Shown: positions 1 through 21,246, numbered from the stretch's first letter. The stretch: DNA of 64,000 nucleotides from an uncultured Gemmatimonadales bacterium (GCA_963844445.1 CAWJOB010000001.1:27500-91499), one strand, 5' to 3'. Program-made: numbers and translations. The notes: generated by a model not told the origin, from the letters alone.

Positions 1-80
1 ATCGCGGTCACCGCCTCGAGCAGCGAGCGTGCCTCGGCTCCGAGGGCGGTTGAGGTGGGGGTCACCCGCACAGTCTGTCC

Positions 81-520
81 CTACGCCGGGCGGCGCACCG
101 GCAGGTGCTCCCACGGGTCCCAGCCGCCACCCAGCTGCCGCCCGCTGACCTCGGTCCACGGGATGCGTACGACGAGGTTGCGCTGGCCCGCCGCCCAGGG
201 ACGCGGTGCCAGGACCGGGCGATCTCGGAGAGCTCCTCGTGGTCGTCGACGAAGGACGCCCGACCCCGCACCACGACGCTCCAGCCGCGCTCGAGCTCGT
301 AGTCGAACTGGTCGACCTCGAAGCACACCTGGGCGTCGCGGCCGTAGGTGCCCAGCAGGCTGTAGGCGGTGGTGCGGACGAGGATCGAGTCGCCGTCCAC
401 GGCGTAGTTCACCGGGACGATGTGGGTGCCGGTGGGCGTGCCGAGCGCCACCCGCCCGGCCATGCCGGCGCCGAGCAGTCGTGTGCAGTCCTCGTGGGAG
501 AGGTCGTGGGTGGTGAGCAT
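81..520 (-). CDS. Pyridoxamine 5'-phosphate oxidase-family (FMN-binding split-barrel) protein; reading frame interrupted near 205-222
   Basis: The gene starts at ATG 520. 'MLTTHDLSHEDCTRLLG...THIVPVNYAVDGDSILVRT' is typical of PPOX-like proteins. The C-terminal 'RPWAAGQRNLVVRIPWTEVSGRQL' continues in the frame of ORF 81..1073, so a 1-nt indel is implied. Confidence 0.7.
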
Positions 521-594
521 GGGAGCCTCCTTCGGCCGGACTCCCAGCCTCCCTGCCCGGTGGCGTCGCGGGCAGGGTCGAAGGTCCCGAACGG

Positions 595-1531
595 CTAGGG
601 CGTCGGAGTCGGTGATCAGCCCGCCGGTCGTCGGCTGGTAGGGGTTGAGCCCGTGGTCGATGGCGTACTGCTTGAGGTAGCCCTCCTGGCCCAGGACCTT
701 GATCCGCTCGGCGATCTTCGCGGCCTCGGCCTTCTCCACCTCGATCTGCGCCTGCGCGGCCTTCACCTGGGCGGCGGCCTCGGCCTCCTTGGCCTTGGCG
801 CGGGCGACGGCCTCCTGCTGGGCGACGAGCGCGGCCTTCACCTCCTCCGGCGGGACAGGCTTCTGCAGGGTGATGGCGAAGTCGGTGAAGAACTCCTCGT
901 CGCCGTCGATCTGGCGGCCGACCAGCTCGGGCATCTGCTCGAGCACCTCCTGCTCCCACTGCGCCTTGACGGCCGGGTCGGTGTAGAGCTCGGTGTAGGT
1001 GTAGTTCTGGCTGGCGCGGTCGATCGCGGTCTCCAGCGGCCGGCTGATGTAGACGCTCAGCATCTGCAGCCACCCGGCCGAGCCGTTGCCGTCGGTGGAG
1101 TCCATGTAGGCGGCGTAGCGGTTGCCGATCAGGTCGTGGAACTTCTGCAGCGTCTTGCAGTCGGTGTTGAGCAGGAACGCCGCGACCCCGTCGACCGACA
1201 TCTCGATGCCGTCCTTGCTGACGAAGGTCACCATCGGCCGGTCGCCGCCCTCGCCGAAGACGTAGTTGCGCTGGCTCTTGGGGTAGGAGTAGTGCTTGTC
1301 GCCGGGGCCGTCCCAGGCGCGCGTCGAGCTCGACACGCAGTCCTTGAAGCTGCGCGGCGTGAAGGCGCCGTCGCTGTAGTGCAGGGCCACCTGGTCGGGG
1401 CCGGTCGAGACGGTGGTCGGCCGGACGAAGATCAGCGTCCCGACCCCGAGGACCAGCAGCAGGATGACTCCGCCCGACGCCTTGCGCAGTGCGCCGGCCC
1501 GGCTGGCGATCTTGTTCGTCGTGGTCGACAT
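595..1531 (-). CDS. SPFH/band-7 domain membrane protein; 3' end uncertain
   Basis: The gene starts at ATG 1531 with 'MSTTTNKIASRAG...' and has an N-terminal TM helix ('GGVILLLVLGVGTLIFV'). An Ala/Glu/Lys coiled coil follows ('AKAKEAEAAAQVKAAQAQIEVEKAEAAKIAE'). There is no in-frame stop before the next gene. The nearest stop (595-597) is out of frame, suggesting an indel near the 3' end. Confidence 0.6.
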
Positions 1532-1538
1532 CGGGTCC

Positions 1539-1736
1539 TCAGGCGTCGGGGCCGCTGGAGAGGCGGCGGTGGTGGGTCGTGATCTCGTCGATGATGATCG
1601 TGGAGAGCTCGGGGGAGACGTCGCGGTGCTGCCACGCCGTCTCGCGCAGCTGCTCGATGAAGGCGTCGCGCTCGGCGAGCTCGCGCGGAGCAGCGGGCGG
1701 GGCGACCGCGGGCGCCGACCCGGCGCCGACGGACAT
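1539..1736 (-). CDS. Hypothetical small protein, possibly with an N-terminal TM extension up to ~1800 in other frames
   Basis: This 65-aa ORF has strong GC3 bias and lies directly upstream of the SPFH gene. A hydrophobic 'MTALLLLL..VVLIGVGLLG' segment lies upstream in shifted frames. Confidence 0.4.
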   Translation of the reverse strand: MSVGAGSAPAVAPPAAPRELAERDAFIEQLRETAWQHRDVSPELSTIIIDEITTHHRRLSSGPDA

Positions 1737-1905
1737 GCGCCCGGCCCAGAAGGCCGACGCCGATCAGCACGACGCACGAGGAGGAGCAGCAGCGCGGTCA
1801 TGCGCGCATCCTGCCCTGTCCGGGGTCGTCGAACCCTGATTTCCCCACTGGTCCAGAGCATCTTCGAGCGCACTCGACGTTGACGGCCCGGTCTAGCGTG
1901 GAGAC

Positions 1906-3307
1906 GTGACTGACCCGAACACCCAGCACCCCGCAGCAAGCACCCTCGGCCAGCTCCGCGCCAGCGGCCACGAGCTGAAGACGCTCCGCGAGGAGCTCCG
2001 CGACAACCTGCTCGCCCGGTTGCGCAGCGGCGAGGATCCGTGGCCCGGCCTGCACGGCTTCTCCGAGACCGTCGTCCCGCAGGTCGAGCGCGCCCTGCTC
2101 GCCGGCCACGACATCGTGCTGCTCGGCGAGCGCGGCCAGGGCAAGACCCGGCTGCTGCGCTCGCTGGTCGGCCTCCTCGACGAGTGGTCACCGGTGATCT
2201 CCGGCTCCGAGCTCGGCGAGCACCCCTACGAGCCGATCACCGTCACGTCCCAGCAGGCGGCGGCGACGTACGGCGACGACCTGCGGATCTCGTGGCGGCA
2301 CCGCGACGAGAGGTACGCCGAGAAGCTGGCGACGCCGGACACGTCGGTCGCCGACCTGATCGGCGACGTCGACCCGATGAAGGTGGCGGAGGGCCGTCAC
2401 CTCGGCGACCCGGAGACCATCCACTTCGGGCTGATCCCGCGCAGCCACCGCGGCATCGTCGCGATCAACGAGCTGCCCGACCTCGCCGAGCGGATCCAGG
2501 TCGCGATGCTCAACGTGATGGAGGAGCGCGACATCCAGATCCGCGGCTACATCCTCCGGCTGCCGCTCGACGTGCTCGTCGTCGCCAGCGCCAACCCCGA
2601 GGACTACACCAACCGCGGCCGGATCATCACCCCGCTCAAGGACCGCTTCGGCGCCGAGATCCGCACCCACTACCCGCGCGAGGTCGACGAGGAGATCGCC
2701 GTCATCGAGCAGGAGGCCGACCTCGTCGCCGAGGTGCCGGCGTACCTCGCTCGAGGTGCTCGCCCGGTTCACCCGCAACCTCCGCGAGTCCCAGGCCGTC
2801 GACCAGCGCTCGGGCGTCAGCGCCCGCTTCGCGATCGCCGGCGCCGAGACCATCGCCGCCGCCGCGCTGCACCGGGCGACCACGCAGGGCGAGGACGAGG
2901 CCGTGGCCCGCGTCGTCGACCTCGAGACGGCGGTCGACGTGCTCGGCGGCAAGATCGAGTTCGAGACCGGCGAGGAGGGTCGCGAGGCCGAGGTGCTCAC
3001 CCACCTGCTCCGCACCGCCGTCGCCGAGACCGTCCGCGCCCACCTCGCCGGCATCGACCTGCGGCTGCTGGTCGAGGCGATCGAGGAGGGTGCGATGGTC
3101 AGCACCGGTGCCCGCGTCGGTGCGCGCGACTTCCTCGCCGGCCTGCCGGTGCTGGGCGAGTCGGACCTCTACGACGCGGTGTGCGACCGGCTCGGCGCGA
3201 CCAACGACGGCGAGCGCGCGGCCGCGATCGAGCTCGCGCTCGAGGGCCTCTACCTCGCCCGCAAGATCGGCAAGGACACCGACGCCGGGGAGACCGTCTA
3301 TGGCTGA
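1906..3307 (+). CDS. AAA+ ATPase (ChlI/MoxR-like, sigma-54-interaction-type fold), partner of the vWA protein; frameshift near 2745-2760
   Basis: It starts at GTG 1906 and carries Walker A 'GERGQGKT', 'VAINELPDL' and 'ASANPEDYTNRGRIITPLKDRFG'. The N-part lies in ORF 1906..3318 and the C-part ('LARFTRNLRESQAVDQRSGVSARF...') in ORF 2756..3307. Confidence 0.75.
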
Positions 3308-3830
3308 CGCCTGCCTGACGCCGCCCTCGTCACGCTCCGCGCCGGCACCGTCGACGACATCCCGGCGCTCGTCGCGCTCGGCCGCGCCGTCGTGCCGCCG
3401 ACCTACGGCCCGATCGACGCGGCGTACGCCCAGCGGATGATCGACGAGTGGTGGACGCCCGAGGTGTTCACCCGGTCGATGCAGACCAACGCGCACGTCG
3501 TCGCCGAGGTCGACGGGGAGGTCGTCGCGCTCGCCAACGATCGGCCGGCTGTCGCGGTCCTACCGCGACTTCCCGCACGTCAGCGGCGACCGCGAGGTGA
3601 TGTGGAAGCTCTACGTCCACCCCGACCACCACGGCCGCGGCATCGGCAGCCGGCTGCTGGCCGAGGTCGAGTCGCGCGTCGAGGGCGACGAGCTGTGGCT
3701 CGAGGTCGTCGACGGCAACGAGCAGGCCTTCGCGTTCTACCGCGCGCCGCGGCTTCGAGCGAGGTCGAGCGCGACCCCGGACGCGGCCGTGGCCCGACGA
3801 CGTGTGGATGAGGAAGGTGCTGCCGGTGAG
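3300..3830 (+). CDS. GNAT-family N-acetyltransferase; at least 2-3 apparent frameshifts, boundaries approximate
   Basis: 'VTLRAGTVDDIPALVALGRAVVPPTYGPID', 'REVMWKLYVHPDHHGRGIGSRLLAEVE' (acetyl-CoA motif) and 'NEQAFAFYRA.GFE' are spread over three frames (ORFs 2040.., 3392.., 3597..). Confidence 0.6.
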
Positions 3831-5831
3831 CCGCTTCACGAAGTACGCCGGCGGCGACCCGCTCGCGCCGCCGGTCGACCTCGCCGACGCGCTCGACGCG
3901 ATCGGCCAGGACGTGATGGCCGGCTACTCGCCCGAGCACGCGATGCGCGAGTACCTCCGGCGCGGCGGCACCGACCAGACCGGGCTCGACGAGCTGCAGC
4001 GCCAGGTCGCCCAGCGGCGGCGCGACATCCTCCAGCGCAACAACCTCGACGGCACCATGCAGGAGGTGCGCGAGCTCCTCGACAAGGCGGTGCTGGCCGA
4101 GCGCGGCCAGCTCGCCCGCGACATCACGATGTCGGACGAGGACCGCGACTTCCGCGAGATGGTGCTGGACAACCTGCTCGCCGTCCACCGCGGCCGCGGT
4201 GAGCGAGCTGGCGTCGTACGACTGGCAGTCCGCCGAGGCGCGCGAGGCCTACGAGCAGATCAAGGACCTGCTCGGCCGCGAGCTGCTCGACCAGCGGTTC
4301 GCCGGGATGAAGCAGGCGCTCGAGGGCGCGACCGACGAGGACCGGGCGGCCGTCGCCGAGATGCTGTCCGACCTCAACGACCTGCTCGAGAAGCACGCCG
4401 CGGGTGGAGGACACCGACGAGGAGTTCGCCGACTTCATGGAGAAGCACGGCGACTTCTTCCCCGAGAACCCGCAGGACATCGACGAGCTGCTCGACTCGC
4501 TCGCCCAGCGCGCCGCGGCGGCCCAGCGGATGCTCAACTCGATGACCGAGGAGCAGCGCCAGGAGCTGATGGAGCTCTCGCAGCAGGCGTTCGGCTCGCC
4601 GCAGCTGATGGAGCAGCTGGCCCGGATGGACGCCAACCTCCAGGCGCTGCGGCCGGGCGAGGACTGGTCGGGGTCGGAGAGCTTCGAGGGGGACCAGGGG
4701 ATGGGGCTCGGCGACGGCACGGGCGCGCTCCAGGACCTCGCCCAGCTCGACCAGCTGTCCGACCAGCTCGCCCAGTCCTACCAGGGCGCCCGGCTCGACG
4801 ACGTCGACCTCGACGCGCTCGCCGGCCAGCTCGGCCCCGAGGCGGCCGTCGCCGCGAAGACCCTGCAGGAGCTCGAGCAGGCGCTGCGCGACAGCGGCTA
4901 CCTCAAGCGCGGGTCCGACGGCGAGCTCCGGCTCTCGCCGAAGGCGATGCGCCAGCTCGGCAAGGCGCTGCTGCGCGACGTGGCCGACCGGATGAGCGGT
5001 CGCTCCGGCGGCCAGCGCGAGACGCGTACGACGGGCCTGGCGGGCGAGCCGTCCGGCGCCACCCGGCGGTGGGAGTTCGGCGACACCGAGCCGTGGGACG
5101 TGCCGCGCACGATCACCAACGCGGTGCTGCGCGAGGGCGGCGCCTCACCGGTGCGGATCCAGGTCGACGACATCGAGGTCGTCGAGACCGAGGCCCGCAC
5201 CCAGGCGGCCGTCGCGCTGCTGGTCGACACGTCGTTCTCGATGGCGATGGACGGGCGGTGGGTGCCGATGAAGCGCACCGCCCTCGCCCTGCACCAGCTC
5301 GTCCGCTCGCGCTTCCGCGGCGACGACCTCCAGCTGATCGCGTTCGGCCGGCACGCCCAGGTGATGGAGATCGAGCAGCTCACCGGGCCTCGACGCGCCG
5401 CTGGGACAAGGGCACCAACCTCCACCACGGCCTGCTGCTCGCGAACCGGTTCTTCCGCAAGCACCCCAACGCCCAGCCGGTGCTGCTGGTCGTCACCGAC
5501 GGCGAGCCGACCGCGCACCTCGAGCCCGACGGCGAGGTGTGGTTCTCCTACCCGCCGCACCCGCTGACGATCGCCCACTCGGTGCGCGAGCTCGACGCGG
5601 CCGCGCGGCTCGGGGCGCAGGTGACGTTCTTCCGGCTCGGCGAGGACCCCGGCCTGGCGCGCTTCATCGACTCGATGGCCCGTCGGGTCGACGGCCGGAT
5701 GGTCAGCCCCGAGCTCGACGACCTCGGCGCCGCGGTGGTCGGGTCCTACCTCGGCTCGCGCGGCCCCGGCACGTCGTACCGCGAGCACTTCGGCGACTTC
5801 TACGGCGGTCGGCCGGGGCTTCTGGGTCTAG
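3829..5831 (+). CDS. von Willebrand factor type A (vWA) domain protein; about 4 apparent frameshifts (~4195, ~4400, ~5395, ~5820)
   Basis: 'VSRFTKYAGGDPLAPPVDLADALDAIGQDVMAGYSPEHAM' starts at GTG 3829. It has MIDAS-like 'ALLVDTSFSMAMDGRW' and 'VLLVVTDGEPTAHLE'. The homologous sequence hops between ORFs 3802.., 4199.. and 4404... Confidence 0.75.
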
Positions 5832-5841
5832 CCGGGATGCA

Positions 5842-6258: not shown

Positions 6259-6303
6259 GGCGTCATCGTGCCACCCGACGCGCGGTCTGGCAGGGTCTGG
6301 GCC

Positions 6304-7463: not shown

Positions 7464-8816
7464 GCCGTCGGCGAACCCCGGCAGCGACTCCTCGAGGATC
7501 TCGCGGAAGGGCGCGGTCGCGTTGAGCTGGCTCAGCATGCCGATCGCGCCGATCCAGGTGCGGTGGATGAGGAGGTAGGACGTCGGGAGGTTGAGCTTGA
7601 GCGCGAGGGTGAACGCCTCCGACTTCGGGTCGTTGACCCGCTCGAACTGCTCGCGCATCCACTCGCGCGTGAAGGTGAAGCGGTCCTGCGCGGCGGGCTC
7701 GACGAACGGGGCGAGGTAGGACAGGACCATGGCCGGGTCGACCTCGATCTTGTCCTTGATGAACCCCTCCTCGCGCAGCCCGGCGACGAGCGACTGCTCG
7801 TCGGCCTCGAGGGCGATGCGCAGCAGGCGGCCGGTCGCCGGCGGCATGGTGCCGCCCTCGAGGCGGGCGACCGCGCCGAAGTCCAGCACCCCCATCCGGC
7901 CGAGGCCGCCGTCGGGCGCCGGGAGGATGCGGAAGTTGCCGGGGTGCGGGTCGGCGTGGAGCATGCCGGTCAGCCGGGGGCCCTCGAACAGGAACCGCAC
8001 GAAGAGCTCGCCGTAGTGGTCGCGCTCCTCCTGCGTCCCCTCGCGGATCACGTGGGCCAGCGAGTACGGGGAGTCCAGCCACTCGGTCACGAGCACCTGC
8101 TCGCCCACCGACACCACGGCGGGCACCACGATGTCGGGGTGGTCGGCGAAGGCCTCGGCGTACGCCGCCTGCGCCTCGGCCTCCAGCGCGTAGTCGAGCT
8201 CGTCGGCCGCACGCGCCTGCAGCTCGGCCACCAGGGGCTTGATGTCGAGCCCGGGGAAGACCGGCGCGACGCTGCGGGCGACCCGGGCGATCTGGCGCAG
8301 GTCGGACATCAGCGCCTCGCCGGCGCCGGGGTACTGCACCTTGACCGCGACGTCGCGCTCGGCGCCGTCGTCCAGCGCGTGGTCGAGCCACCGGCCCCGG
8401 TGGACCTGGCCGATCGAGGCGGCCGCCGTCGGCGCGCCGTCGAGCCAGACCAGCCGCTCGCGCCAGTCGGCGCCGAGGTGGGTCGTCAGCTGCTGGCGCA
8501 CGGTCGAGGTGGGCATCGGGGGAGCGGAGTCCTGGAGCGCGGTGAGGTGCTCGCGGTAGGGAGCGGCGAGCTCCTCGGGCAGCGCCGACTCCAGCACGCT
8601 GAGGGCCTGGCCGAACTTCATCGCCCCGCCCTTGAGCTCGCCCAGCGTGCGGAACAGCTGCTCGGCCGTGCGCTGCTGGACCTCGCTCAGCACCACGTCG
8701 GCGTTGCGTCCGCCGAGGCGCTTGCCGAACCCGATCGCGGTGCGACCGGCGTACCCCAGGGGCAGCGCCGCGAGGCGTGCCGTGCGGGCGGCGGCCTTGC
8801 GTGGGAGCTCGGTCAT
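7461..8816 (-). CDS. ABC1/UbiB-family atypical protein kinase; 3' end runs on without an in-frame stop
   Basis: The gene starts at ATG 8816. It carries 'AAASIGQVHRGRW', 'VAVKVQYPGAGEAL' and 'MLHADPHPGNF'. The expected stop shares the CTAG at 7460-7463 with the convergent MFS gene but is out of frame. Confidence 0.8.
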
Positions 8817-8946
8817 GGACCCATCATCCCCTCGACGCGCAATCCGGATGCGGCCGGGCACCGAACGGGAGTACGCGCACGGGCGTGACCTGGCGCACGC
8901 TGCGTCGTTGAGCGGGGCAACACCTCACACCCTCGGGAGGGACCAC

Positions 8947-10414
8947 GTGCGACTCACGACCACGCTCGCCTGCACGGCGAGCATCCTCGCCGCCACGGCG
9001 GCCTTCGGCGCCGGCGGCACCGCCACGGCAGCCGTGTCCGGCGCCCCGCAGCCGGCCAACGTCTCCGACTTCCTCGCCGGCCAGCTCACCGGCCTGACCG
9101 GGAGGACCACCGTGCTCGTCCACGGGACGAGCATCACCGCGGCCCGCCAGGCGGTCGCCGCGACGGGCATGGCGAAGAAGGGCGAGTACAAGGGCATCGG
9201 CGTCGTGATCGCCAACGCGACGAAGTCGCAGATCTCGGCGGTCCGCACGCAGAGCGGGGTGACGTACGTCGAGGGCGGCGCGCAGCCCATCGAGTTCTTC
9301 CAGGAGACGTCCAACACCGCGACCCGCGGTGCGGAGGCGGCCTCGACCCTGACCGGTGCCAACGGCAGCCCGCTCACCGGCAAGGGCGTCAGCGTCGCGG
9401 TCATCGACTCCGGCGTCGACCCGACCCACCCCTACTTCAAGGAGGCCGACGGCTCGTCCGCCGTCGTCGCCAACCTCAAGGCGCTCTGCGAGCCGCTGAC
9501 CGAGACCTGCTCGGTCCAGAAGCTCCCGAACATCGTCGACACCGACACGCTGTCGCTCGGCGGCCACGGCACCCACGTCAACGGCATCGTGGCCGGTCGC
9601 CCGACCACGCTGACCGACGGCGGCAAGCTCCAGGGTGCCGCCCCCGGCGCCAAGCTGGTCTCGATCTCGACCGGTGCCGGCATCGTGATCCTCGGCGCCG
9701 ACTCCGCGCTCAACTGGGTGCTCGAGAACCACGCCGCTCCGTGCGGCGCCGGCGTCCCGGCCTCGACCTGCCCGCCGATCAAGGTCACCAACAACTCCTA
9801 CGGCCCGACCGGTGGCGGCGAGTTCGACCCCGAGTCGGCCACCGTCAAGCTCCAGCGGGCGCTCGCCGCCGCAGGGCGTGGTGACCGTCTGGGCGGCCGG
9901 CAACGACGGCGGCGACGGCTCCGAGAGCCTCACCAACCCGCCCGGCCAGGACCCGACCGGCGGCATCCTCTCGGTGGCGTCGTTCTACGACCAGGACACC
10001 GGCACCCGCGACGGCATGGTCTCCGACTACAGCTCGCGCGGCCTGTCCTCGGACGCCTCGACCTGGCCGGACATCTCGGCGCCCGGTGAGAACATCACCT
10101 CGTCGTGCCGTCTCTACCTGGCGATCTGCGCGACCGGCCTCGACCCGCGCAACGGTCCCGGCCTGCTGGACATCGGCACCTTCAACACGATCAGCGGCAC
10201 GTCGATGGCTGCCCCGCACATCGCGGGCATCGTCGCGCAGCTGTTCCAGGCCAAGCCCTCCGCGACCCCCGCCGACATCGAGCGGGCGCTGAAGGTCTCC
10301 GCCTACAAGTACACCGACGGGGCCGGCTACCAGTCCGGTCCGCTGGGCACCACGTCGTACGACAAGGGCTACGGCCTCGTCGACGTCGTCGCCGCCGTCG
10401 CGGCACTGGGGTGA
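8947..10414 (+). CDS. Secreted subtilisin-like (S8) serine protease; frameshift near ~9870
   Basis: It starts at GTG 8947 with a signal-like 'VRLTTTLACTASILAATAAFGAGG'. The Asp/His/Ser triad motifs are 'VAVIDSGVD', 'GGHGTHVNG' and 'SGTSMAAPHIAG'. The C-part lies in ORF 9812..10414. Confidence 0.8.
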
Positions 10415-10477
10415 CCACCCAGGGCTGACACAGACCCTCCAGGGGGGAGCCACCGCGCAACAGGGGCGCGGTGGAAG

Positions 10478-10819: not shown

Positions 10820-11596
10820 TCAGCCGACGGCGGCGCGGGCGGCGCGGGCGCGACGAGCCGTCAGGTAGAGGCTCAGCACGACGTAGTAGGCGACGTAGGC
10901 CACCGAGATCGCGAGCCAGACGACGCTCGGGTCGGGCGCCTGCACGAGCAGCACCGCGTAGCTGACCAGCCAGAGGCAGGTCAGGACGAGCGTGGGCGCC
11001 TGCAGGGTGGTGGTGCGCGAGGGGTAGACGTAGCCGATGGGCACGAAGACGAGCACCGCGCACACCAGCAGCACGGCCGCGGCGGCCGTCGGCGACAGGT
11101 CGAGCACGTAGATGTAGAACGCGGCGATGTTCCAGTAGCTCGGGAAGCCGAGGAACAGGTGGTCGTCGGTCTTCGCGTCGACCCGGCAGAACTGGTACGC
11201 CGACGCCAGCAGCGGCACCACCGCGAGCACCTTCGCCGAGGCCCCGTCGCCGAGCAGCCCGGTGCTCCACAGCAGCACCATCGGGAGGAACGCGTAGGTG
11301 AGGTAGTCGACGATGTTGTCGAGCAGCGCCCCGTCGAACCACGGCACGTGGCGCTTCACCTGCACCCAGCGCGCGAGCATGCCGTCCGTGCCGTCGACGA
11401 CCATGGTGGCGAGGAAGAGCCAGAGGCACCGGGTGGTGTCGCCCTCCATCACCGCGACGACGGCGAGGAACGCCAGCACGAAGCCCGAGGCCGTGTAGGC
11501 GTGCACGAGCCAGGAGGCGATCGTCGGGAAGGTGCTGCCGTGGGGAGGCCACGTCCCTCCTCGGTCGTTGGTGTGTGCCGTCGAGAGGGGGATCAT
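10820..11596 (-). CDS. CDP-alcohol phosphatidyltransferase family protein (phosphatidylcholine-synthase-like)
   Basis: The CDP-alcohol motif is 'DGTDGMLARWVQVKRHVPWFDGALLDNIVD'. It has multiple TM helices. The likely start is ATG 11596 ('MIPLS...'). Confidence 0.75.
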   Translation of the reverse strand: MIPLSTAHTNDRGGTWPPHGSTFPTIASWLVHAYTASGFVLAFLAVVAVMEGDTTRCLWLFLATMVVDGTDGMLARWVQVKRHVPWFDGALLDNIVDYLTYAFLPMVLLWSTGLLGDGASAKVLAVVPLLASAYQFCRVDAKTDDHLFLGFPSYWNIAAFYIYVLDLSPTAAAAVLLVCAVLVFVPIGYVYPSRTTTLQAPTLVLTCLWLVSYAVLLVQAPDPSVVWLAISVAYVAYYVVLSLYLTARRARAARAAVG

Positions 11597-11697
11597 GTCA
11601 GACGGAGCCGCCGGAGATGCAACCTTCGCCGGTGCGTTCCGCGTCCTCAAGGTGCATCGGGACGATCCGGTGCACGACACGAGAAACGGAAAGCACC

Positions 11698-12248: not shown

Positions 12249-12251
12249 GGC

Positions 12252-12593: not shown

Positions 12594-12687
12594 GGCTGCT
12601 CCTCGGTCCCGGGGCCGCCCGTGCGGCCCTCCGACACTCTGACGGACGAGCCCGGCCGAAATCGACAGGCCGGCTCGGCGAAGGGCT

Positions 12688-13561
12688 TCAATCCGTGCCG
12701 GCCGCGTCGAGCACGGAGGTGACGGCCTCGCACGACGACGTCGGGTTCCTCGCGGGGCACCTCGTGGCCGCTGTGCTCGGCGATGACGCGGCGCCCGTCG
12801 GGGACCGACCGGGCCAGGTCCTGCTGCAGCTCGTCGCGCAGCCGGTCGAACAGCTCGCGTCGTAGCCGGGAGGCCATCCCGAGGCGATGCCCGCCGAGAC
12901 GACGACCAGCGGCACGGCCGGAAGGGGTCCGGCCTCCGCGATCTCCGCGACGCTGGCGAACGGGTCCATGCCCTCGGGGTTGCCGAGCGCCGAGGCGCGG
13001 TCCTCCTCGATCTGGCGGCGCGTCAGGTGCTCCTCGAAGATCGGGATCTCCTCCGGGTGGAGGGACTCCACGAGCACGAGCCCGGCGACCTCGTCGGGGA
13101 AGGTGGACGCGTACTGCTGGGTGATGAGCCCTCCGAACGAGAAGCCGACGATGACGTACGGCCCCGGCAGCTCGGCGGCCTCGACGAGGGCGTGCAGGTC
13201 CTCGACAGCCTGGGTGGTCGTCCGGGGCGCGGACGCGGGCACGCTCCCGCCGGTGCCCGCACGGTCGTAGGAGCAGACCCGGGTCCTCTCCGCCAGGGCG
13301 GGCTGGACGTCGCTCCCACGTGCGCAGGTCGCCACCGAGGCCCGCCTCGAGGATCACCGTGGGCGAGCCGGTGCCGGTGCAGCTGAGCTGCAATGAGCGA
13401 CCGCCGATGTCCACCTGCCTGGGCCCTTCCGCGCTCGGGGTGGTGACGGCCGGCGTGGCCGTGTCCTGCTCGTCCGGCTCCGCCGGGGTGGCGCAGGCGG
13501 CCAGCGCGATCGCGAGGGTGGATGCCGCGAGGATCGCGACGATGGAGCGCCGCGTGCTCAT
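12688..13561 (-). CDS. Alpha/beta-hydrolase lipoprotein; about 3 apparent frameshifts
   Basis: It starts at ATG 13561 with the lipobox 'LAIALAAC'. It has 'TVILEAGLGGD' and the nucleophile elbow 'VIVGFSFGG'. The C-terminal 'VIAEHSGHEVPREEP' is in another frame. Confidence 0.7.
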
Positions 13562-14281
13562 GACAGCGGCCGGAGGTCGAAGTCGTCGTCGGACATCCGG
13601 AGCAGGACGACCGAGACGTAGGTCATCGCCACTGCCGTCATGGTCCACGACAGGGCGGGCTGGACGTTGCCGAGGCTGCAGCGGTGCGAACTCCACGAAC
13701 GGGCTGGCCATCATCAGCACCGCCAGCCAGCGCGGCGCCAGGTCCGCCTCTCCAGAACAGCACGCCCACGGCGATCCGCCCGAGGGTGATGAAGAGCAGG
13801 AAGGGATCAGGTACGGCGTCGTCCACGGACCGCCCGACACGAGGCTCACGTACTCGCTGATCCGGCTCGGGTCGAGGCCTGCTCGAGGCCGGCCACGACG
13901 AGGAGGTCGGAGCCGGGGTTGGCCGCGGCCAGCAGCCCGGCGAGCCCCATCCACGAGCCGAGCACGGCGGCGAGCACCGGCCGGGACCGCCTCAGCGCCA
14001 CCACCAGGGCGACGGCGCCCGGGACGAACGTGAGCGGGAACAGCAGCTGGGGCACGAGGAGCGCCTCCACGAGCCCCCGGTGCGCGGTGACCTCGGCGAC
14101 GGCCTGGCCGACGGTTCCGGTCAGGGGCACCGGGGTGAGCCAGTTCGTGAGGCCGATCAGGGCCGCCCCGCAGGGGGCGAGCACGGCGAGCAGGACCCGC
14201 CAGTACGTGCGCGCATCTCTCGACGATGTCGGGGACGCAGTGACGACGACCGGCGTGGGTCGTCGGGGTCGGGGTGGTCAT
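13558..14281 (-). CDS. Polytopic membrane protein of unknown function; several apparent frameshifts
   Basis: Hydrophobic segments ('LAPCGAALIGLTNWLTPVPLTG', 'LLFPLTFVPGAVALVVAL', 'FLLFITLGRIAVGVLFW') are spread over three minus frames. Its stop overlaps the hydrolase start in an ATGA (13558-13561). Confidence 0.45.
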
Positions 14282-14418
14282 GGGTGGCTCCTTCGAGCAC
14301 GGTGGATGGATTCCTCCACCGTGGTTCCGGAGTCGTCCCGCCTCCCAGAGGAGCCGTTCCCTGACCGGCGGGAACGCGTTCCCTTCCTCCGCGGGACCGG
14401 AGTCGTCAGGATGAGCGC

Positions 14419-16406
14419 ATGACACGCCCCGGGAGCCGGCTGCTGGCCGCGGCGATGCTTGTCGGGGCGTTCGCCCTGACCGTCGCCTCGGTGGTGTTCG
14501 CCGTCCTGGGCGGCGCTGGGCCTGCAGTGGGCGGTGGACAACTTCGTCGTGTCGAACACCCTGATCGGCGCGTCCATGGCGGCCGCGGGCTGGCCCGTCG
14601 CGACCTACCGCCCGAGGAACCCGGTGGGCTGGCTGCTGCTGGTCGGCGGGGTGGCGTACCTCGCGTCGGCTGCCGGACTGGTGGTGCTGGTGTGGGCGGG
14701 CCCCGACCCGTCGCACGGGTGGGTGCGGGTGGTGGCGACGCTGGTGAACGCCGGGTTCCCGATCCCGGTCGCACTGTCCCTCCCGGTGTCGCTGCTGCTG
14801 CTGCCGGACGGCCGGCTGCCGTCCGCTCGGTGGCGACTCGTGGCCCTGCCCGCGGCCGTCGGCGCGGTCGGCTTCCTGGCGTCGTCCCTGGTGGATCCCG
14901 CCGGTGGACTGTCGGCCGAGGCCGGTGCCCGTGACCTCGTCGCGGACGTCGACATGGGAGCGCTGGGAGGTGTGGCCGCGGCCTGCATGGTGATCACCTA
15001 CCTCAGCGCCATCGCCGCCCTCGTGCTGCGCTACGTCCGCGGGGACCAGCAGCTCCGGCGCCAGCTCCTGTGGATCGTCCTGGCCGCGGCTCCTGCTGCT
15101 GGCCGGGGTGGGGGTCGACTCCTTCCTGACCGAGGGAGACACCCTGTGGGGGGTCCTGCCGCTCGTCTTCCTGCCCGTGTCGATGACCATCGCCGTGCTG
15201 CGTCACCGTCTCCTCGACATCGAGGTCGTGGTCTCCAGGTCGTTGCTCTACCTGGCCCTGACCGGCCTGGTCCTGGCGTCGTACTCGGCCGTCGTCGTCA
15301 TGCTCGACTCCGTCTTCCGGACCCGGGTCGCCGCGACGCCCGCCATCGCCGCGCTCGCGATCGCCATCGCCTTCAACCCGGTGCGGAGCGTGCTCCAGCG
15401 CGGCATCGAGCGTGCCGTCTTCGGGGCGCGACGCGACCCCGTCCGGGCCCTGTCCGCCGTGGGTGAGCAGCTCGGGAGCGGCTCCGGGCTGCCGGAGATG
15501 CTCGCGGTGGTGTGCGAGGTCCTGCGTCTCCCCGCCGCGGCGATCGTCGTGCACGACCGGGTCGAGGCTGCCCACGGGGAGCTGCCGGCGACGTGCCACC
15601 GCACGGAGCTACGGCACGGCGACCAGGTGCTCGGCGAGCTCGTCGTCGGCCTGCGACGCGGCGAGTCCCGGGTCAGTGCGGCCGACGCGCAGGTCCTGTC
15701 GCTGCTGTCGGCGCCGGTGGCCGCCGCGGTGCACGCGGCGGCACTGGCGGAGGAGGTGCACCGTTCCCGGGCCAGGATCGTGAGCGGGCGCGAGGAGGAA
15801 CGACTGCCGCCTGCGACGGGACCTGCACGACGGGCTGGGCCCGGTCCTCACCGGTGTCGTGCTGAACGCGGATGCCGCCCGGCACCTGCTGGCGAGCGAC
15901 CCGTCGCGCAGCGCCGACCTCCTGGACCAGCCTCCGCGACCAGACCGTCGGCGCGGTCGCCGACATCCGGCGCCTGGTGCACGAGCTGAGGCCGCCGGTG
16001 CTCGACGGTCTCGGACTGGTCGGGGCGCTGCGTGAGCACGCCGTCGGCATCAACCGTCGACTGGACGGCCATCCGCTCCGGGTCGAGATCACTGCTGACG
16101 GTGGGATCGACACCGTCGGAGCCGCCGCGGAGGTCGCGGCGTACCGCATCGTCACCGAGGCGCTGACCAACGTCGTCCGCCACTCCACCGCCACCACCGT
16201 CACGGTCCACCTGGCGACGTCGACCGGGGTCGCTCCGCCTCGAGGTGCACGACGACGGCCACAACGACCAGGACTGGGCGCCCGGGATCGGGCTGACCTC
16301 GATGCAGGAGCGCGTCGACGAGCTCGGCGGCACGAGTGAGGCGCACGGCGACCCGTCAGGGGGAGTCGTCGTCGTCGAGCTCCCGCTGGCGGCGGTGTCG
16401 TCGTGA
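14419..16406 (+). CDS. NarL-type sensor histidine kinase (HisKA_3 + HATPase_c); about 5 apparent frameshifts
   Basis: The N-terminal half is multi-TM. The H-box region is 'REEER..LRRDLHDGLGPVLTG', followed by 'AAYRIVTEALTNVVRHS' and 'GIGLTSMQERVDELGG'. The sequence hops among ORFs 14419.., 14534.., 15108.. and 15872... Confidence 0.75.
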
Positions 16407-17050
16407 GCCTGCGGATCGTCGTCGCCGACGACCACGGCGTCGTGCGCGACGGGATCGCGGCACTGTTGTCGGCCATCGACGGGTTCGAGCTCGTGGGAAC
16501 GGCCGCCACCGGGGAGGAAGCCGTCCGGGCTGCCGTCGAGCTGCGGCCCGACGTGCTGGTCATGGACATCGAGATGCCGGGCGGCAACGGCATCGACGCC
16601 ACCGCCAGGCTGCAGACCCTGGCGCCCGAGGTCGCGGTGCTCGTGCTCACCATGTTCGACGACGACGCCTCGGTGTTCGCCGCCATCCGGGCCGGCGCGC
16701 TCGGCTACGTGCTGAAGGGCTCCGAGTCAGGCTCGATGATCAGGGCCATCGAGGCGGTCGCGGCCGGTGAGGCGATCCTCGGGCCGGGACTCGCACGGCG
16801 GACCTTGTCCTTCCTGTCGGCCCCTCGCCCGGACAGTCCCTTCCCCGAGCTGTCCGAGCGCGAGCGAGCGGTCCTCGACCTCCTTGCAGCGGGCCGTTCG
16901 AACCACGAGATAGCCGCGCGTCTCTCCGTCTCGGTCAAGACGGTGAACAACCACGTGAGCAGCGTCTACGCCAAGCTGCGGGTCGCGGGCCGACCTGAGG
17001 CCATCGTCCGTGCCCGCGAGGCCGGACTGGGGCAGGCCGACCCGGGCTGA
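16403..17050 (+). CDS. NarL/LuxR-family response regulator
   Basis: This intact 215-aa ORF has the receiver motifs 'IVVADDH' and 'DVLVMDIEMPGGNG'. Its LuxR HTH is 'LSERERAVLDLLAAGRSNHEIAARLSVSVKTVNNHVSSVYAKL'. Its GTG overlaps the kinase stop (GTGA). Confidence 0.9.
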   Translation: MSLRIVVADDHGVVRDGIAALLSAIDGFELVGTAATGEEAVRAAVELRPDVLVMDIEMPGGNGIDATARLQTLAPEVAVLVLTMFDDDASVFAAIRAGALGYVLKGSESGSMIRAIEAVAAGEAILGPGLARRTLSFLSAPRPDSPFPELSERERAVLDLLAAGRSNHEIAARLSVSVKTVNNHVSSVYAKLRVAGRPEAIVRAREAGLGQADPG

Positions 17051-17052
17051 CC

Positions 17053-17838
17053 TCAGCGGTTCGCGTCGTCGCGCACCAGCCGGAGCCACCCGAGGAGCCA
17101 GCGCGCCGACCGCCCACACGGCCATGGTGACGATCGCCGAGGTCCGGGTCATGTCCTCGCCGATCGACTCGCCCGTCAGCAGGAAGATCGCGCCGGTGCC
17201 GGGCAGGACCGAGGCCAGGTCGAGCATCCACTCGTAGGGGAACTGCGGCAGCGCGAGCGGCAGGAGCAGCACGAGCAGGAAGACGGTGATGAGGGCGCCG
17301 GCCGTGCTCCGGAGCGCGAACCCCAGCCCGGCGGCGAGGGCCGTGCCGGCGCCGAAGACGATCCCGGTCGTGCCGACCACGTCGAGGCCCTCGTCGAGCG
17401 GCATGCGTGAGGATGTCCGCCGCCATCGCGTGGGCTGCGGCCGCGCAGGCGACCGCGAGGAGCATCCCGACGAGGGTCGCCGTCCCGACGACGACGAGTG
17501 CGCGTGCCGCGAAGAGGGTCGTACGACGCGGCGTCCACTGCAGCGTCGGCACGATGCCGGCGGTGCCGTAGTCCGCGGTGACGGCGAGCAGCGCGAGCGC
17601 CAGCAGGACGAGCTGGGTCGGGCAGCGCGGCGATGGACGGGGCGACCCAGGCGGGCTCGCCGACGGGCGGGACCACGTCGCCCGCGGCGTCGTTGCCGGC
17701 GATCAGGCCGAGCCCGACCATGGCGACGGTCGCCGCCGCCACGAGCCACCACGTGGCCTTCACGGTCCACAGTCGCGTCCACTCGGCGCGGCAGGTCCGT
17801 CCCAGGACGAGGGCCGGGGAGGTCGTCGCGGCGCTCAT
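17053..17838 (-). CDS. ABC-2-type transporter permease; about 3 apparent frameshifts
   Basis: It starts with 'MSAATTSPALVLGRTCRAEWTRLWTVKATWWLVAA'. Later TM segments lie in ORFs 16935..17552 and 16727..17782. The start overlaps the ATPase stop (ATGA at 17835-17838). Confidence 0.65.
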
Positions 17839-18755
17839 CGGGCCGCCTCCGCCGCGGCGCCGTGGAACTCGACGCTGTCGCTGGTGAGCTCGAGGAACGC
17901 CTGCTCGAGCGACTGCTCGACGTCGGAGAGGTGGTGCAGCGGCAGGCCCCAGGCGAGGGCGAGGTCGCCGATCTCGGCGGCGGTGCCGCCCTCGACGTGC
18001 GCCTCGGACTCGTCCACGCGGGTGACCCCGAGCCCGCGCTGCTCGAGCCGCGGGACGAGCGCGCCGAGCTGCGTGCTGCGGACGCGTACCCGCCGACCGC
18101 CGAGCCCCTGCAGGATCTCCGCCGTGGTGGCGTCGGCCACCAGGCGGCCGCGTCCGATCACGACGAGCCGGTCGGCGGTCTGCTGCATCTCGCTCATCAG
18201 GTGGCTCGAGACCAGCACGGTGCGCCCCTCGTCGGCGAGCCGTCGCAGCAGCTCGCGGATCCAGCGGACCCCGTCGAGGTCGAGCCCGTTGATCGGCTCG
18301 TCGAAGAGCACGACCCTCGGGTCCCCGAGCAGGGCGGCGGCGATGCCGAGCCGCTGCCGCATGCCGAGCGAGTAGCCCTTCACGCGGCGCCTGGCCGCCC
18401 CACCGAGGCCGACCTGGTCGATGACCTCGTCGACGCGGCGGTCGCCGATGCCGTTGGTCCGGGCGGCCACGCGCAGGTGGTTGCGCCCGGTCCGCCCCGG
18501 GTGGACCGCACCCGCGTCGAGCAGCGCGCCGACCTCGCGCAGCGGCTCGGCGTACGACGCGAACGGGCGCCCGTGCACCAGCGCCCGCCCGGCGGTCGGC
18601 CGGTCCAGCCCGAGCACCATCCGCATCGTGGTGGACTTCCCGGCCCCGTTGGGGCCGAGGAACCCGGTCACCAGCCCCGCCTCGACGTCGAAGCTCAGGT
18701 CGTCGACGGCGACCACGTCGCCGTACCTCTTCGTCAGTCCCCGGACCTCGATCAC
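17835..18755 (-). CDS. ABC transporter ATP-binding protein
   Basis: This intact 306-aa ORF has Walker A 'GPNGAGKST', the signature 'YSLGMRQRL' and Walker B 'VVLFDEP'. Confidence 0.9.
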   Translation of the reverse strand: MIEVRGLTKRYGDVVAVDDLSFDVEAGLVTGFLGPNGAGKSTTMRMVLGLDRPTAGRALVHGRPFASYAEPLREVGALLDAGAVHPGRTGRNHLRVAARTNGIGDRRVDEVIDQVGLGGAARRRVKGYSLGMRQRLGIAAALLGDPRVVLFDEPINGLDLDGVRWIRELLRRLADEGRTVLVSSHLMSEMQQTADRLVVIGRGRLVADATTAEILQGLGGRRVRVRSTQLGALVPRLEQRGLGVTRVDESEAHVEGGTAAEIGDLALAWGLPLHHLSDVEQSLEQAFLELTSDSVEFHGAAAEAAR

Positions 18756-18878
18756 AGCTGCCTCCGCACCCTCGTCCGACCTGTTCGGACTCGTCGCGAC
18801 GACGCTAGGAGCCGGACTGGTCGGGAGTGGTGGAGACGATGTGGAGATCGTGCGGAGGTTGGCGCCCCTCCGCCGGCG

Positions 18879-19530
18879 TCAGGCGGTCTCGGGGAACTTC
18901 ACGCCCGTGTTGGCGTGGCAGCGGTAGCCGAAGGGGTTCTTGGCGAGGTACTGCTGGTGCGGCGTCCTCGGCGTAGAAGTACGGCGTCTCGCTGGCGGGG
19001 CGGATCTCGGTGGTGATCTCGCCGAGGCCGCGGCGGGCCAGCTCGTCGCCGTACGCCTTGGTCAGCTCGCGCGCGGTCTGCTCCTGCTCCGGGGTCGTCC
19101 AGTAGATCGCGGAGCGGTACTGGGTGCCGACGTCGTTGCCCTGGCGCATGCCCTGGGTCGGGTCGTGGATCTCGAAGAACCTCTTGAGCAGGTCGGCGTA
19201 GGACACCACGGAGGGGTCGAAGACGACACGGATCGCCTCGGTGTGGCCGGTGTGGCCGCTGCAGACCTCTTCGTAGGTCGGGTTCGGCGTGCTGCCACCG
19301 GCGTAGCCCACGGACGTCGACCAGACGCCCGGCAGCTGCCAGTAGATCTCCTCGGCGCCCCAGAAGCAGCCGAGGCCGAGGACGGCGACCTCGTGGCCGG
19401 CCGGGACCTCGTCGGTGACGACGGGGGTGTGGAGGACCACGTGCTCCCCGAGGGTCCACATCGCCTGCGTACGGCCGGGCAGGGCCTGGTCGGGCGTGGG
19501 CAGGGTGGCGGGCTTGCCGAATCCGAACAT
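18879..19530 (-). CDS. msrA: Peptide-methionine (S)-S-oxide reductase MsrA; frameshift near ~18955
   Basis: It has '[28 protein letters not shown]' and '[13 protein letters not shown]'. The conserved C-terminus '[26 protein letters not shown]' is readable only after a 1-nt shift. Confidence 0.85.
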
Positions 19531-19685
19531 GCCCCCATCATCCCCGGTCGGACAAGCCCGGCCCACGGTGTCTACGTGGAATTACGTGGTCTAGACGTCG
19601 TGCTGCCACCGATGTGCCACGTCGACGGTCGGGGCAGAGTCGGCCGCACGCATCCGTACGAACACATCGTGGAAGGTCTCGCTCA

Positions 19686-20372
19686 ATGCAGATTCGAAAA
19701 GGCTCCTACGCCAACGTTGCATCCACCCTCGCTCTCGTCGTCGCGCTCGGGGGCCGCAGCTTTGCCGCGGTCGCCATCGCCAAGAACTCGGTCGGCTCGC
19801 CGCAGATCATCAACTCCTCCATCAAGAGCGCCGACGTCAAGAACGGCGGGCCCAAGGCGGTCGACTTCAAGGCCGGTGAGCTCACGGGCGGCGCTGTCGG
19901 CCCCGCCGGTCCTGCCGGTCCATGCCGGACCTGCGGGCGCAACTGGACCTGCGGGCGCAACTGGACCTGCGGGCGCAACTGGCCCGGCCGGGCCGAAGGG
20001 CGAGCCCGGCGCGGCGATCGCAGTGGCCAGCTACGCCGCCGACGGCACCAAGCTCATGTCGAAGGTCGACGGGGTCAACCTCGCGTGCTCCGGGTTCTGC
20101 CTGACGCCCTCCCGGCGGATCCGGGTCGCCAAGCTCGCGACGGGTCGCTACTGCCTCCACGTCGAGAAGAACGTCGGGACGATCTTCGCTCCTAACTACC
20201 AGCCCTATGTGTCGGCCGCCGATCGACTACGTCGCCAACGTGACGCTCAACGGCAGCGCGCCGGGCTTCGCCCAGCAGTGGGGCTCATCGTGAGACCAGC
20301 GGTTTCGACCTGTACACCTTCACCAGCGCCGGCGCCGCTGCGGACCGCGCTTTCAACGTCATCATCAACTGA
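19686..20372 (+). CDS. Secreted collagen-like (Gly-X-Y) repeat protein; at least 3 apparent frameshifts
   Basis: It starts at ATG 19686 with a signal/TM 'ANVASTLALVVALGG'. The G-X-Y run is 'GPAGPAGP..GPAGATGPAGATGPAGATGPAGPKGEPG'. The C-terminal globular part ends '...FNVIIN'. Confidence 0.6.
19927..19980 (+). repeat. Perfect 18-bp tandem repeat x3 (GGACCTGCGGGCGCAACT) encoding GPAGAT
   Basis: The repeat was read directly from the sequence and lies inside the collagen-like gene. Confidence 0.95.
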
Positions 20373-20447
20373 CGTCGGCTCCTGAGCGACGATCACTCCG
20401 ACGCCAACTCGGCGGCGATCCTCGCGCCTGCTCGATCCGATCGAGGA

Positions 20448-20482
20448 GGAACGGCCGCCACCCGTGGGGTGGCGGCCGTTCC
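20448..20482 (+). terminator. Perfect 16-bp GC-rich hairpin between the collagen-like gene and metB (putative terminator)
   Basis: GGAACGGCCGCCACCC-GTG-GGGTGGCGGCCGTTCC. No clear U-tract follows, so its function is uncertain. Confidence 0.45.
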
Positions 20483-20519
20483 GCTGTCCGGCTCCGAGCG
20501 CTGGGTCTACGCTCGACCG

Positions 20520-21246
20520 GTGACCCAGGAACGTGCCAACAAGACCGGTTTCGAGACGCGTGCGATCCACGCCGGCTACGAGCCCGACCCGATGACCGGG
20601 GCGGTCAACCCGCCCATCTACGCCAGCAGCACCTACAAGCAGGACGGCGTCGGCGGCCTGCGCGGCGGCTACGAGTACAGCCGCTCCGCCAACCCCACGC
20701 GTACGGCGCTCGAGGGCGCGCTCGCGGCCGTCGAGGACGGCGAGAAGGGGTTCGCCTTCGCCTCCGGCCTGGCCGCCGAGGACGCGATCATCCGGGCGCT
20801 CACCGCGCCCCGGCGACCACGTGGTCATCCCCGACGACGCCTACGGCGGCACGTTCCGCCTCTTCGACAAGGTCGCGAAGCTCTGGGGCACTCGCCTACA
20901 GCGCCGGCGCCCGTCGCCGACACAGACGCCGTGGCCGCGGCGATCGAGCCGGGCCGCACCAAGCTGGTCTGGGTCGAGACGCCCACCAACCCGATGCTCA
21001 CGATCGGCGACATCGAGGCGCTCGCCACGATCGCCCACGACGCCGGCGCCCTGCTCGTCGTCGACAACACCTTCGCCTCGCCCTACCTCCAGCAGCCGCT
21101 CACCCTCGGCGCGGACGTGGTCGTGCACTCGACCACGAAGTACGTCGGCGGGCACAGCGACGTCGTCGGGGGAGCGGTCGTCGTGCGCGACCTCGACCTC
21201 GCCGACAAGATCGGCTTCCACCAGAACGCCATGGGCGCAGTGGCCA
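20520..21246 (+). pseudogene. metB: Cystathionine gamma-synthase/lyase (PLP, Cys/Met-metabolism family), 3'-truncated at ~21246 and frameshifted (~20810, ~20895)
   Basis: It has 'GFETRAIHAGYEPDPMTGAVNPPIYASSTY' and 'HSTTKYVGGHSDVVGG' (PLP-lysine region). It ends at 'FHQNAMGAV', where homology and GC content break. Roughly the last third of the protein is missing. Confidence 0.8.

Follow-up and report, generated by a model that had tools for sequence, protein, structure and literature searches.

The window, the whole 64,000-nt stretch of DNA analysed here, consists of two parts that meet near position 21,245. The left-hand block (1-21,245) is Nocardioides-type chromosomal DNA, with 72% GC and a GC3 of about 0.97. 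A preliminary description of this DNA had called the block actinobacterial, and its relatives and synteny now narrow this to Nocardioides: a scan of genome contigs found 80 related loci, the best of them, in MFD01275.bin.1.263, at 98% amino acid identity, and blastn revealed synteny with Nocardioides genomes over 1-12,705 at 87-92.5% nucleotide identity. The closest relatives are Nanopore-only MAGs assembled with Flye and Medaka in the Microflora Danica project (PMC12313526). The tetranucleotide profiles of the two halves of the block correlate with each other at r=0.92, and with the rest of the window at 0.37-0.76. The host to the right is marked as Gemmatimonadales by an intact NtrC-type regulator, which has a 100% match on a public 1,373,692-bp contig and whose named matches, at 85-93% identity, are Gemmatimonadales. 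This one contig (NCBI, ENA) bears Nocardioides-type proteins, Gemmatimonadales-type proteins and the frameshifted products of the window.

Frame switches in the block were located by a GC3-based Viterbi procedure and by two alignment approaches, one a multiple alignment of the DNA with that of six Nocardioides relatives, the other a frameshift-aware protein-to-DNA procedure of our own that used intact orthologues (Table 1). We count 41 or more small indels in the block, a density of about 2 per kb, and no fewer than 39 break genes; of the 41, about 35 are +1, one is +2, three are -1 and two are ambiguous, making ~85% insertions, at ~12:1 over deletions. Their density is high and nearly uniform across the 21 kb. 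The preliminary description had counted about 35 switches; we find one at or near every site it listed, and a larger total. The frameshift-aware alignment it proposed recovers intact orthologues once the indels are removed, and the start/stop overlaps it pointed out (ATGA 13558-13561, GTGA 16403-16406, ATGA 17835-17838) are present. Four of its five intact genes stand (DUF1905, YciI, the response regulator and the ABC ATPase); the fifth, the CDP-alcohol phosphatidyltransferase gene, has an insertion near its start, and its ORF appears intact solely because of a spurious upstream start. Only the shortest genes are thus spared, as a random process at ~2 per kb would leave them.

Table 1. Features of the window and the lesions found in them (positions counted from the first nucleotide of the window).
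Feature	Position	Strand	Lesions and remarks
PPOX			shift at 206
SPFH			stop lost at ~615
Small gene	1541-1890		shifts 1754, 1773
Intergenic indels in block	1532, 1902
AAA+ (MoxR-like) gene	1903..3304	+	one +1 insertion at 2748
GNAT			shifts 3536, 3745
vWA-domain gene	3829..5828	+	five +1 insertions: 4176, ~4407, 5388, 5397, 5809
SnoaL/NTF2			shift 5989
MFS			shifts 6478, 7211
UbiB/ABC1-like gene	7465..8816	-	+1 insertion ~7464, two codons before stop; otherwise intact
S8 peptidase gene	8916..10411	+	+1 insertion at 9871
CDP-alcohol phosphatidyltransferase gene	10826..11549	-	+1 insertion at 11535, ~codon 5
Secreted protein			shifts 11905, 12048, 12174, 12194
Alpha/beta hydrolase gene	12595..13563	-	three shifts: ~13313, ~12885, 12679
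Sensor histidine kinase gene	14440..16406	+	five +1 insertions: ~14510, 15090, 15807, 15928, 16226
ABC-2 permease gene	17059..17838	-	three +1 insertions: 17098, 17405, 17622
msrA gene	18882..19570	-	+1 insertion at 18960
Collagen-like gene			~3 shifts
metB-like gene (cystathionine gamma-synthase family)	20510..21245	+	shifts 20805, ~20894; cut at junction
Junction, Nocardioides-type / Gemmatimonadales-type DNA	21238..21255
Gene of uncharacterised family, no Pfam domain	21247..23077	-	last ~30 codons missing at junction
Second error cluster, same insertion type	28690..31650		ten 1-nt insertions, vs syntenic intact L161, L162
218-255 aa gene	29836-29075		broken by two 1-nt insertions
Fer4/FeS/GGDEF gene (Pfam)	31596-29910		broken by three 1-nt insertions
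Sigma-54-dependent NtrC-type regulator	31741..33249	-	intact; Pfam Sigma54_activat
gcvT gene	42963..44064	-	+1 insertion 43635, shift ~43978

Individual genes illustrate how completely the reading frames can be restored. The AAA+ protein finds an uninterrupted 454-aa match in all 80 relatives, the two frames of the window meeting at 2748-2750. The corrected vWA protein (666 aa) covers 100% of hundreds of intact Nocardioides proteins of 663-678 aa, the best at 96%; in independent assemblies it found no intact copy belonging to the same strain, its best match being 96% identical. The same five shifts in the kinase gene are required by each of five full-length homologues (660-721 aa), and the publicly called kinase fragment P0092 (293 aa) has out-of-frame sequence at its end. 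Joined, the hydrolase pieces yield one Abhydrolase_6 match, in which residues 74-279 align to profile positions 6-217 of 217, and the 220-aa frameshifted product of the ABC-2 permease gene occurs in a public protein collection. The UbiB-like protein aligns over 450 aa at 96% identity to that of locus L001 with zero internal shifts; its C-terminus reads GFADA* in relatives and GFADGLARR... in the window, where the +1 insertion makes the ORF run on to 7122. This 1.35-kb gene was missing from the earlier list.

At the junction, local GC drops from ~0.70 to ~0.50 within ~60 nt. The metB-like gene stops there after ~245 of ~390 codons; homologues at three loci (L030, L031 and L041) align as far as window positions 21,242-21,248 and extend further in their own surroundings. 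On the other side lies a 664-aa ORF with 41 homologues, the only named one being from Gemmatimonadales, and these run ~30 aa past the junction. The taxonomic discordance, Nocardioides to the left and Gemmatimonadales to the right, coincides with this point. No integrase, transposase, tRNA or repeat is found at the junction or within the block, and tRNA and Rfam scans of the window gave zero matches. Because the junction cuts one gene on either side, we infer a misjoin, the contig probably being a chimeric join at ~21,245. Neither the foreignness of the block to the rest of the contig nor the gene-cutting junction figured in the preliminary description.

The Gemmatimonadales-type part carries errors of its own, likewise of the insertion type and grouped in two clusters, one at 28.69-31.65 kb and the other in gcvT. 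Seven gene-breaking shifts lie in 29-64 kb, five in 29.07-31.1 kb and two in gcvT, and intergenic indels are present at 28692-28950 and 31652. The joined gcvT pieces match GCV_T over profile positions 21-254 of 255, and the homologue at locus L161, 369 aa long, is intact. In 29-64 kb, about 20 kb of ORFs are free of shifts. The far cleaner state reported earlier for this region, with about six switches, is thus confirmed; the unevenness of the indel load is real, but the cluster at 28.69-31.65 kb means that the high-error zone is not bounded simply at 21.2 kb. Apparent shifts in a kinase at 39180-41015 were dismissed as alignment noise in a Pro/Ala-rich linker since the ORF is continuous, and a Pfam search of 22.8-26.9 kb gave no convincing match.

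Genuine decay leaves nonsense codons and deletions, raises dN/dS and erodes codon bias, and natural bacterial gene decay is reportedly deletion-biased, as Mira, Ochman and Moran are said to have found in 2001. The block resembles the mass pseudogenisation of Mycobacterium leprae and of recent host-restricted symbionts in its many broken genes, here set in a syntenic actinobacterial block, but we judge the other marks of real pseudogenisation to be absent. Not one in-frame stop occurs across 2,424 aligned codons; dN/dS is 0.134-0.149 between window and relatives, and 0.128-0.157 among the intact relatives L001-L004; GC3 is kept at ~0.97. No sign of relaxed selection is therefore to be seen. Reductive evolution would be expected to show deletion bias as well as nonsense mutations, and the block has ~36 insertions to 3 deletions; nor is lineage-specific substitution accelerated, the window lineage being the slower in relative-rate tests. 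These results agree with the earlier statement that conserved sequence and GC3 bias continue undamaged beyond each switch, and with its view of the lesions as either technical or very recent; the insertion excess, lack of nonsense codons and intergenic indels favour the former.

Homopolymers, one of the places where the preliminary description had suggested looking, hold few of the insertions: runs of three or more identical bases contain only 3 of the 17 that could be placed precisely. Homopolymers were therefore rejected as the explanation, and the classical homopolymer error model is a poor fit. A column polymorphic among relatives adjoins 14 of the 17 (background 0.49, p=0.005), and at 9 both alleles stand in tandem (background 0.19, p=0.002), a figure that depends on the aligner's gap placement; at 11905, for example, the window has AG+TCC where relatives have either AGC or TCC. 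The block is also short of private sites: it has 73 private substitutions and 4 private amino acids, the relatives 236-321 and 17-28 each; in Tajima relative-rate tests p ranges from 1e-8 to 1e-23, and ~99% of alignment sites match at least one relative. So low a private-site count would be expected of a population consensus. The short-branch signal is weaker but present in the Gemmatimonadales part (270 private sites vs 395 and 503), and is thus not specific proof of strain mixture, which is likely rather than proven. A mosaic of near-identical segments from the sampled relatives was rejected, no 500-column bin exceeding ~98% identity to any relative; shared derived alleles were not decisive as a test of mixture, incongruent patterns being equally common among the relatives themselves.

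The 21-kb frameshift-riddled block is best explained as an assembly artefact, not as decay of its genes. With a probability of roughly 0.9, judged from the assembled sequence, the frameshifts are consensus errors of a long-read metagenome assembly and the 21.2-kb block is Nocardioides DNA misjoined to a Gemmatimonadales contig. That the indels are technical is argued by the restored orthologues, the insertion excess, the zero stops, the unchanged dN/dS and the intergenic indels. We infer that sequencing platform and pipeline were of the long-read kind. Behind the block consensus there were probably few reads, or a mixture of reads from several related Nocardioides populations; at points of disagreement between them, the consensus or polishing step would have retained an additional base, and the resulting scattered +1 insertions would split nearly all genes longer than ~1 kb. 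A mixed-population origin of the insertions is likely. Fragmented copies of block proteins are also found on other public contigs, and one protein, P0093, looks frameshifted.

Watson and Warr are said to have reported in 2019 that indel errors in long-read assemblies fragment genes. Gene-fragmenting indels in Nanopore and PacBio assemblies are described in the Kastor paper (PMC12007338) and by Sereika et al. (PMC9262707); the block shares with them ORFs split by single-base indels, orthologues restored by correction, the lack of accompanying substitutions and a density that varies along the contig. Classical Nanopore errors are homopolymer deletions, whereas ours are mainly insertions and mostly outside homopolymers, a departure from the textbook profile that speaks against reading the block as an artefact. 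A closer precedent for the position of the errors is haplotype collapse: Flye merges related genomes into one strain-oblivious consensus (PMC8302730), collapsed variant alleles create indel errors and apparent frameshifts, as in a collapsed T. brucei assembly (PMC8445201), and in these cases haplotype separation removes the apparent frameshifts (PMC8445201, PMC8302730). Common to them and the block are errors adjoining variant sites and a consensus without private variants; but those cases were a diploid eukaryote or two-strain mock communities, and here a swarm of soil Nocardioides would be involved. GUNC addresses the problem of chimeric contigs and MAG contamination (cited in PMC12313526), and the window resembles such cases in that phylum, GC and tetranucleotide profile change abruptly inside a single contig and genes are truncated at the breakpoint. 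Unlike the usual chimeric contig, this one has a foreign segment whose consensus is much poorer than that of the neighbouring part, and frameshift density alone suffices to detect it.

It is possible, though doubtful, that the errors are ordinary low-coverage long-read errors in a single Nocardioides strain, with no mixture, the block being perhaps a poorly polished stretch. The errors form clusters separated by clean stretches, as they would in unpolished segments; low-coverage MAGs have, according to the Microflora Danica authors, a low coding density associated with Nanopore data (PMC12313526); and the short branch is not unique to the block. Yet read errors in a single strain should add private mismatches, and private substitutions are 3-4 times fewer in the block than in its relatives; the enrichment of insertions at sites variable among relatives, and their dominance over deletions, also count against this.

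That the join is artefactual but the frameshifts real, reflecting sudden mass pseudogenisation in a Nocardioides lineage (an insertion-biased mutator, or relaxed selection in a symbiont), is very improbable. The high, nearly uniform density over 21 kb would suit it, as would the frameshifted appearance of the related P0093, but selection has not been relaxed (GC3, dN/dS of 0.13-0.15 and absence of stops), a mutator should have more private substitutions and the block has fewer than any relative, both-allele indels at polymorphic sites point to a consensus process, and the housekeeping genes msrA, metB and UbiB are struck as often as accessory ones. Still harder to credit is that a Gemmatimonadales genome really did receive, by recent horizontal transfer, at least 21 kb of Nocardioides chromosome, whose useless genes would now be undergoing inactivation by frameshifts: one contig does bear both parts, and frameshifts without accompanying substitutions fit very recent events, but the junction and block lack any mobility gene, tRNA or repeat, genes are cut on either side, the ~12:1 insertion bias is opposite to that of natural bacterial decay, and native Gemmatimonadales genes such as gcvT bear the same type of error. 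Substitutions normally outnumber indels ~10:1, and ~40 indels with neither a nonsense codon nor a change in dN/dS would be unexpected. Least probable of all is a correct contig in which illegitimate recombination would recently have brought at least 21 kb of Nocardioides chromosome into a Gemmatimonadales cell and an insertion-biased mutational process would inactivate the foreign genes before substitutions accumulate.

The significance of an assembly artefact here is one of data hygiene, not biology. The public contig of 1.37 Mb, which is probably listed under Gemmatimonadales, has at least 21 kb of Nocardioides sequence. The ~20 genes of that sequence have been cut into dozens of false fragments, which have already entered protein databases (e.g. 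P0043, P0092); this swells the numbers of orphan proteins and pseudogenes, and could pass for inter-phylum gene transfer. Clustered non-homopolymer +1 insertions, together with adjacent variable sites and too few private substitutions, form a signature that could be flagged automatically and find similar regions.

Throughout the leftmost 21.2 kb, the codon-position GC profile and a seven-state Viterbi segmentation show the coding signal (GC3 ~0.97) hopping between frames of the same strand, and the pieces translated across these hops read as continuous proteins. A genome scan with the AAA+ query returned 80 Nocardioides-type loci, and in 80/80 the gene aligns over 454 codons with no interruption; ranking highest were MFD01275.bin.1.263 (98% at the amino acid level), MFD01275.bin.2.52, N. 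potassii and MFD01275.bin.2.148, and positions 1-12,705 are syntenic with the best-matching loci at 87-92.5% nucleotide identity. The preliminary description had counted about 35 frame switches in this block and proposed frameshift-aware alignment against homologues. We placed the lesions by multiple DNA alignment, tblastn and a purpose-written frameshift-aware protein-to-DNA alignment against intact orthologues; these confirm the shifts and raise the count to at least 41 small indels, about 2 per kb, at least 39 of them gene-disrupting. The histidine kinase requires the same five +1 corrections against 5 different full-length homologues; the joined pieces of the hydrolase, PPOX, SnoaL and GNAT genes yield single Pfam matches that span the joins; and the corrected vWA protein covers intact Nocardioides proteins of 663-678 aa, which number in the hundreds, over 100% of their length, the best at 96% identity.

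The start/stop overlaps reported earlier are present in the sequence. Only the DUF1905, YciI, response regulator and ABC ATPase genes (285-921 nt) are untouched, about what would survive if lesions fell at random at 2 events per kb. The CDP-alcohol transferase had been counted as a fifth intact gene, but has an insertion near codon 5; a 1.35-kb UbiB-like gene had been overlooked, and its sole lesion is an insertion two codons ahead of the stop. The SPFH gene appears to have lost its stop through the same kind of insertion.

Close Nocardioides relatives differ in gene content within this region. A 6.2-kb accessory segment (12,670-18,877), comprising a hydrolase, a membrane protein, a histidine kinase with LuxR-type regulator and an ABC-2 transporter, is absent from the related loci L002, L004 and L015, in which YciI leads directly to msrA; the MFS transporter gene (6,277-7,466), present in L003 and L014 and missing from L001, L002, L004 and L015, is a second such presence/absence polymorphism.

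The indels of the block comprise about 35 +1 insertions, one +2, three -1 and two ambiguous cases, and two of them fall in intergenic spacers (1532 and 1902). In the multiple DNA alignment, a strict filter leaves 13 1-nt insertions that are private to the window; the relatives have 0-5 such insertions apiece. No in-frame stop was found in 2,424 aligned codons, and dN/dS of the window against its relatives (0.134-0.149) equals that among the intact loci L001-L004 (0.128-0.157). Natural bacterial decay is biased towards deletions, and substitutions are roughly tenfold commoner than indels. With 40 insertions but neither a nonsense codon nor any relaxation of constraint, the lesions are thus unlike the products of evolution, and of the two origins first suggested, technical or extremely recent, the technical one is supported; we put the probability of a technical artefact at about 0.9. 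The proposed test of whether the indels sit in homopolymers came out largely negative, only 3 of the 17 precisely placed insertions being in base runs of three or more.

As to how such an artefact might arise, reads from several related populations merged into one consensus would give a sequence with few changes of its own and with extra bases where the relatives differ. Of the same 17 insertions, 14 abut a column variable among the relatives (background 0.49, p=0.005), and nine hold the two alleles next to each other (background 0.19, p=0.002), a statistic that depends on gap placement; among these nine are AG+TCC at 11905 (either AGC or TCC in relatives) and T+C at 5809. Private substitutions number 73 in the block, compared with 236-321 in each of four relatives; for private amino acids the figures are 4 and 17-28, and the relative-rate tests are highly significant. 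At about 99% of its bases the block agrees with one or more of the relatives, although identity to any single relative is only 90-92%. The MFD01275 sample alone contributes seven Nocardioides-like species-level MAGs to the genome-scan matches. Flye collapses related genomes (PMC8302730), and collapsed variant alleles produce apparent frameshifts as well as indels (PMC8445201). For the Microflora Danica MAGs, assembly used Flye --meta --nano-hq and one Medaka round, without short-read polishing, and their authors linked low coding density in MAGs of low coverage to Nanopore sequencing (PMC12313526). Since the short-branch effect also appears, more weakly, in the Gemmatimonadales part, the tandem-allele count varies with gap placement, and the window's contig need not belong to Microflora Danica, we give a mixed-population consensus even odds of being the specific cause, with plain low-coverage error as its main alternative.

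Errors right of the junction at ~21,245 were read off the intact proteins of two Gemmatimonadales contigs, L161 and L162, a comparison which shows the block's type of error recurring in native Gemmatimonadales genes (Table).

Table. Errors in the Gemmatimonadales part and GC blocks of the window
Feature	Position	Observation
Fer4/FeS/GGDEF gene	31067, 30379, 30365	three +1 insertions
Adjoining 218-255 aa gene	29611, 29178	two +1 insertions
gcvT	43635, ~43978	two shifts
Intergenic DNA	between 28,692 and 31,652	five further 1-nt insertions
GC block 1	1-21.2 kb	~72% GC
GC block 2	21.2-29 kb	57-65% GC
GC block 3	29-49 kb	~70% GC
GC block 4	49-64 kb	~65% GC

About 20 kb of ORFs in this part are free of shifts (NtrC, HD-GYP, an outer-membrane protein, OTCase, a TPR protein, MoCF, two Ser/Thr kinases, an amidohydrolase, a beta-propeller protein, an 837-aa protein and a 664-aa ORF), where 2 events per kb would predict about 40; the load is therefore strongly non-uniform. 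The contrast originally drawn at 21.2 kb stands to that extent, but the load is patchy rather than divided at one boundary. The intact 837-aa membrane protein (56,772-59,285) has an identical copy in an independent Logan assembly (run ERR11592907); a further public contig, of 714 kb, has it split into fragments of 309, 366, 402 and 119 aa.

At the junction itself, homology to Nocardioides metB ends at 21,242-21,248, after ~245 of ~390 codons, and over tens of bases local GC drops from 0.70 to 0.50. The 664-aa minus-strand ORF on the other side belongs to a family whose sole named member is from Gemmatimonadales, and its homologues run ~30 residues beyond the window's switch to antisense metB; the family has 41 homologues, ~600-aa proteins with no Pfam domain. 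Tetranucleotide correlation is 0.92 between the block's halves, 0.37-0.76 between it and the other blocks, and 0.59-0.81 among the latter. At 90% clustering the block's proteins group with Nocardioides proteins, and matches of 85-93% identity to the sigma-54 activator encoded right of the junction are from named Gemmatimonadales. L161 and L162 are syntenic with 27.3-33.3 kb, and L161 also with 39.2-46.7 kb. By these measures the block, which is real Nocardioides-type sequence in origin, is not part of its neighbour. Exact look-ups place intact proteins from all GC blocks on a single public contig of 1,373,692 bp, present in NCBI and ENA, including a 100% match to the sigma-54 activator. A real illegitimate insertion of the block is possible but improbable; no integrase, transposase, tRNA or repeat was found at the junction, and scans of the whole window found no tRNA or Rfam family. 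A misjoin is the simplest reading, and frameshifts and junction together are best explained as assembly products, with no biological feature behind them.

A public 442-aa copy of the kinase on a different contig (P0093), 91% identical to 15,084-15,797, goes into out-of-frame sequence and then returns, so that related Nocardioides sequence seems to have been mis-assembled elsewhere too. Within the Gemmatimonadales part, 21,250-27,300 is low in GC (57-65%; GC3 ~0.6), with no convincing gene at 22.8-26.9 kb. Beside HD-GYP, L161 and L162 carry an AAA_16/TPR gene of 1,101-1,109 aa for which the window has no equivalent, and 33,300-39,150, which encodes a fusion of a Ser/Thr kinase with PD40 (TolB-like) repeats as well as other genes, is an insertion relative to L161. 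The 849-aa amidohydrolase (46,696-49,245) is a single ORF in which a full Amidohydro_1 unit occurs twice in tandem. The 562-aa protein encoded at 29,910-31,596 (minus strand) combines ferredoxin-type Fe-S, iron-hydrogenase-like, FeS and C-terminal GGDEF diguanylate cyclase domains; its gene adjoins the sigma-54 regulator, an arrangement kept in L161 and L162.
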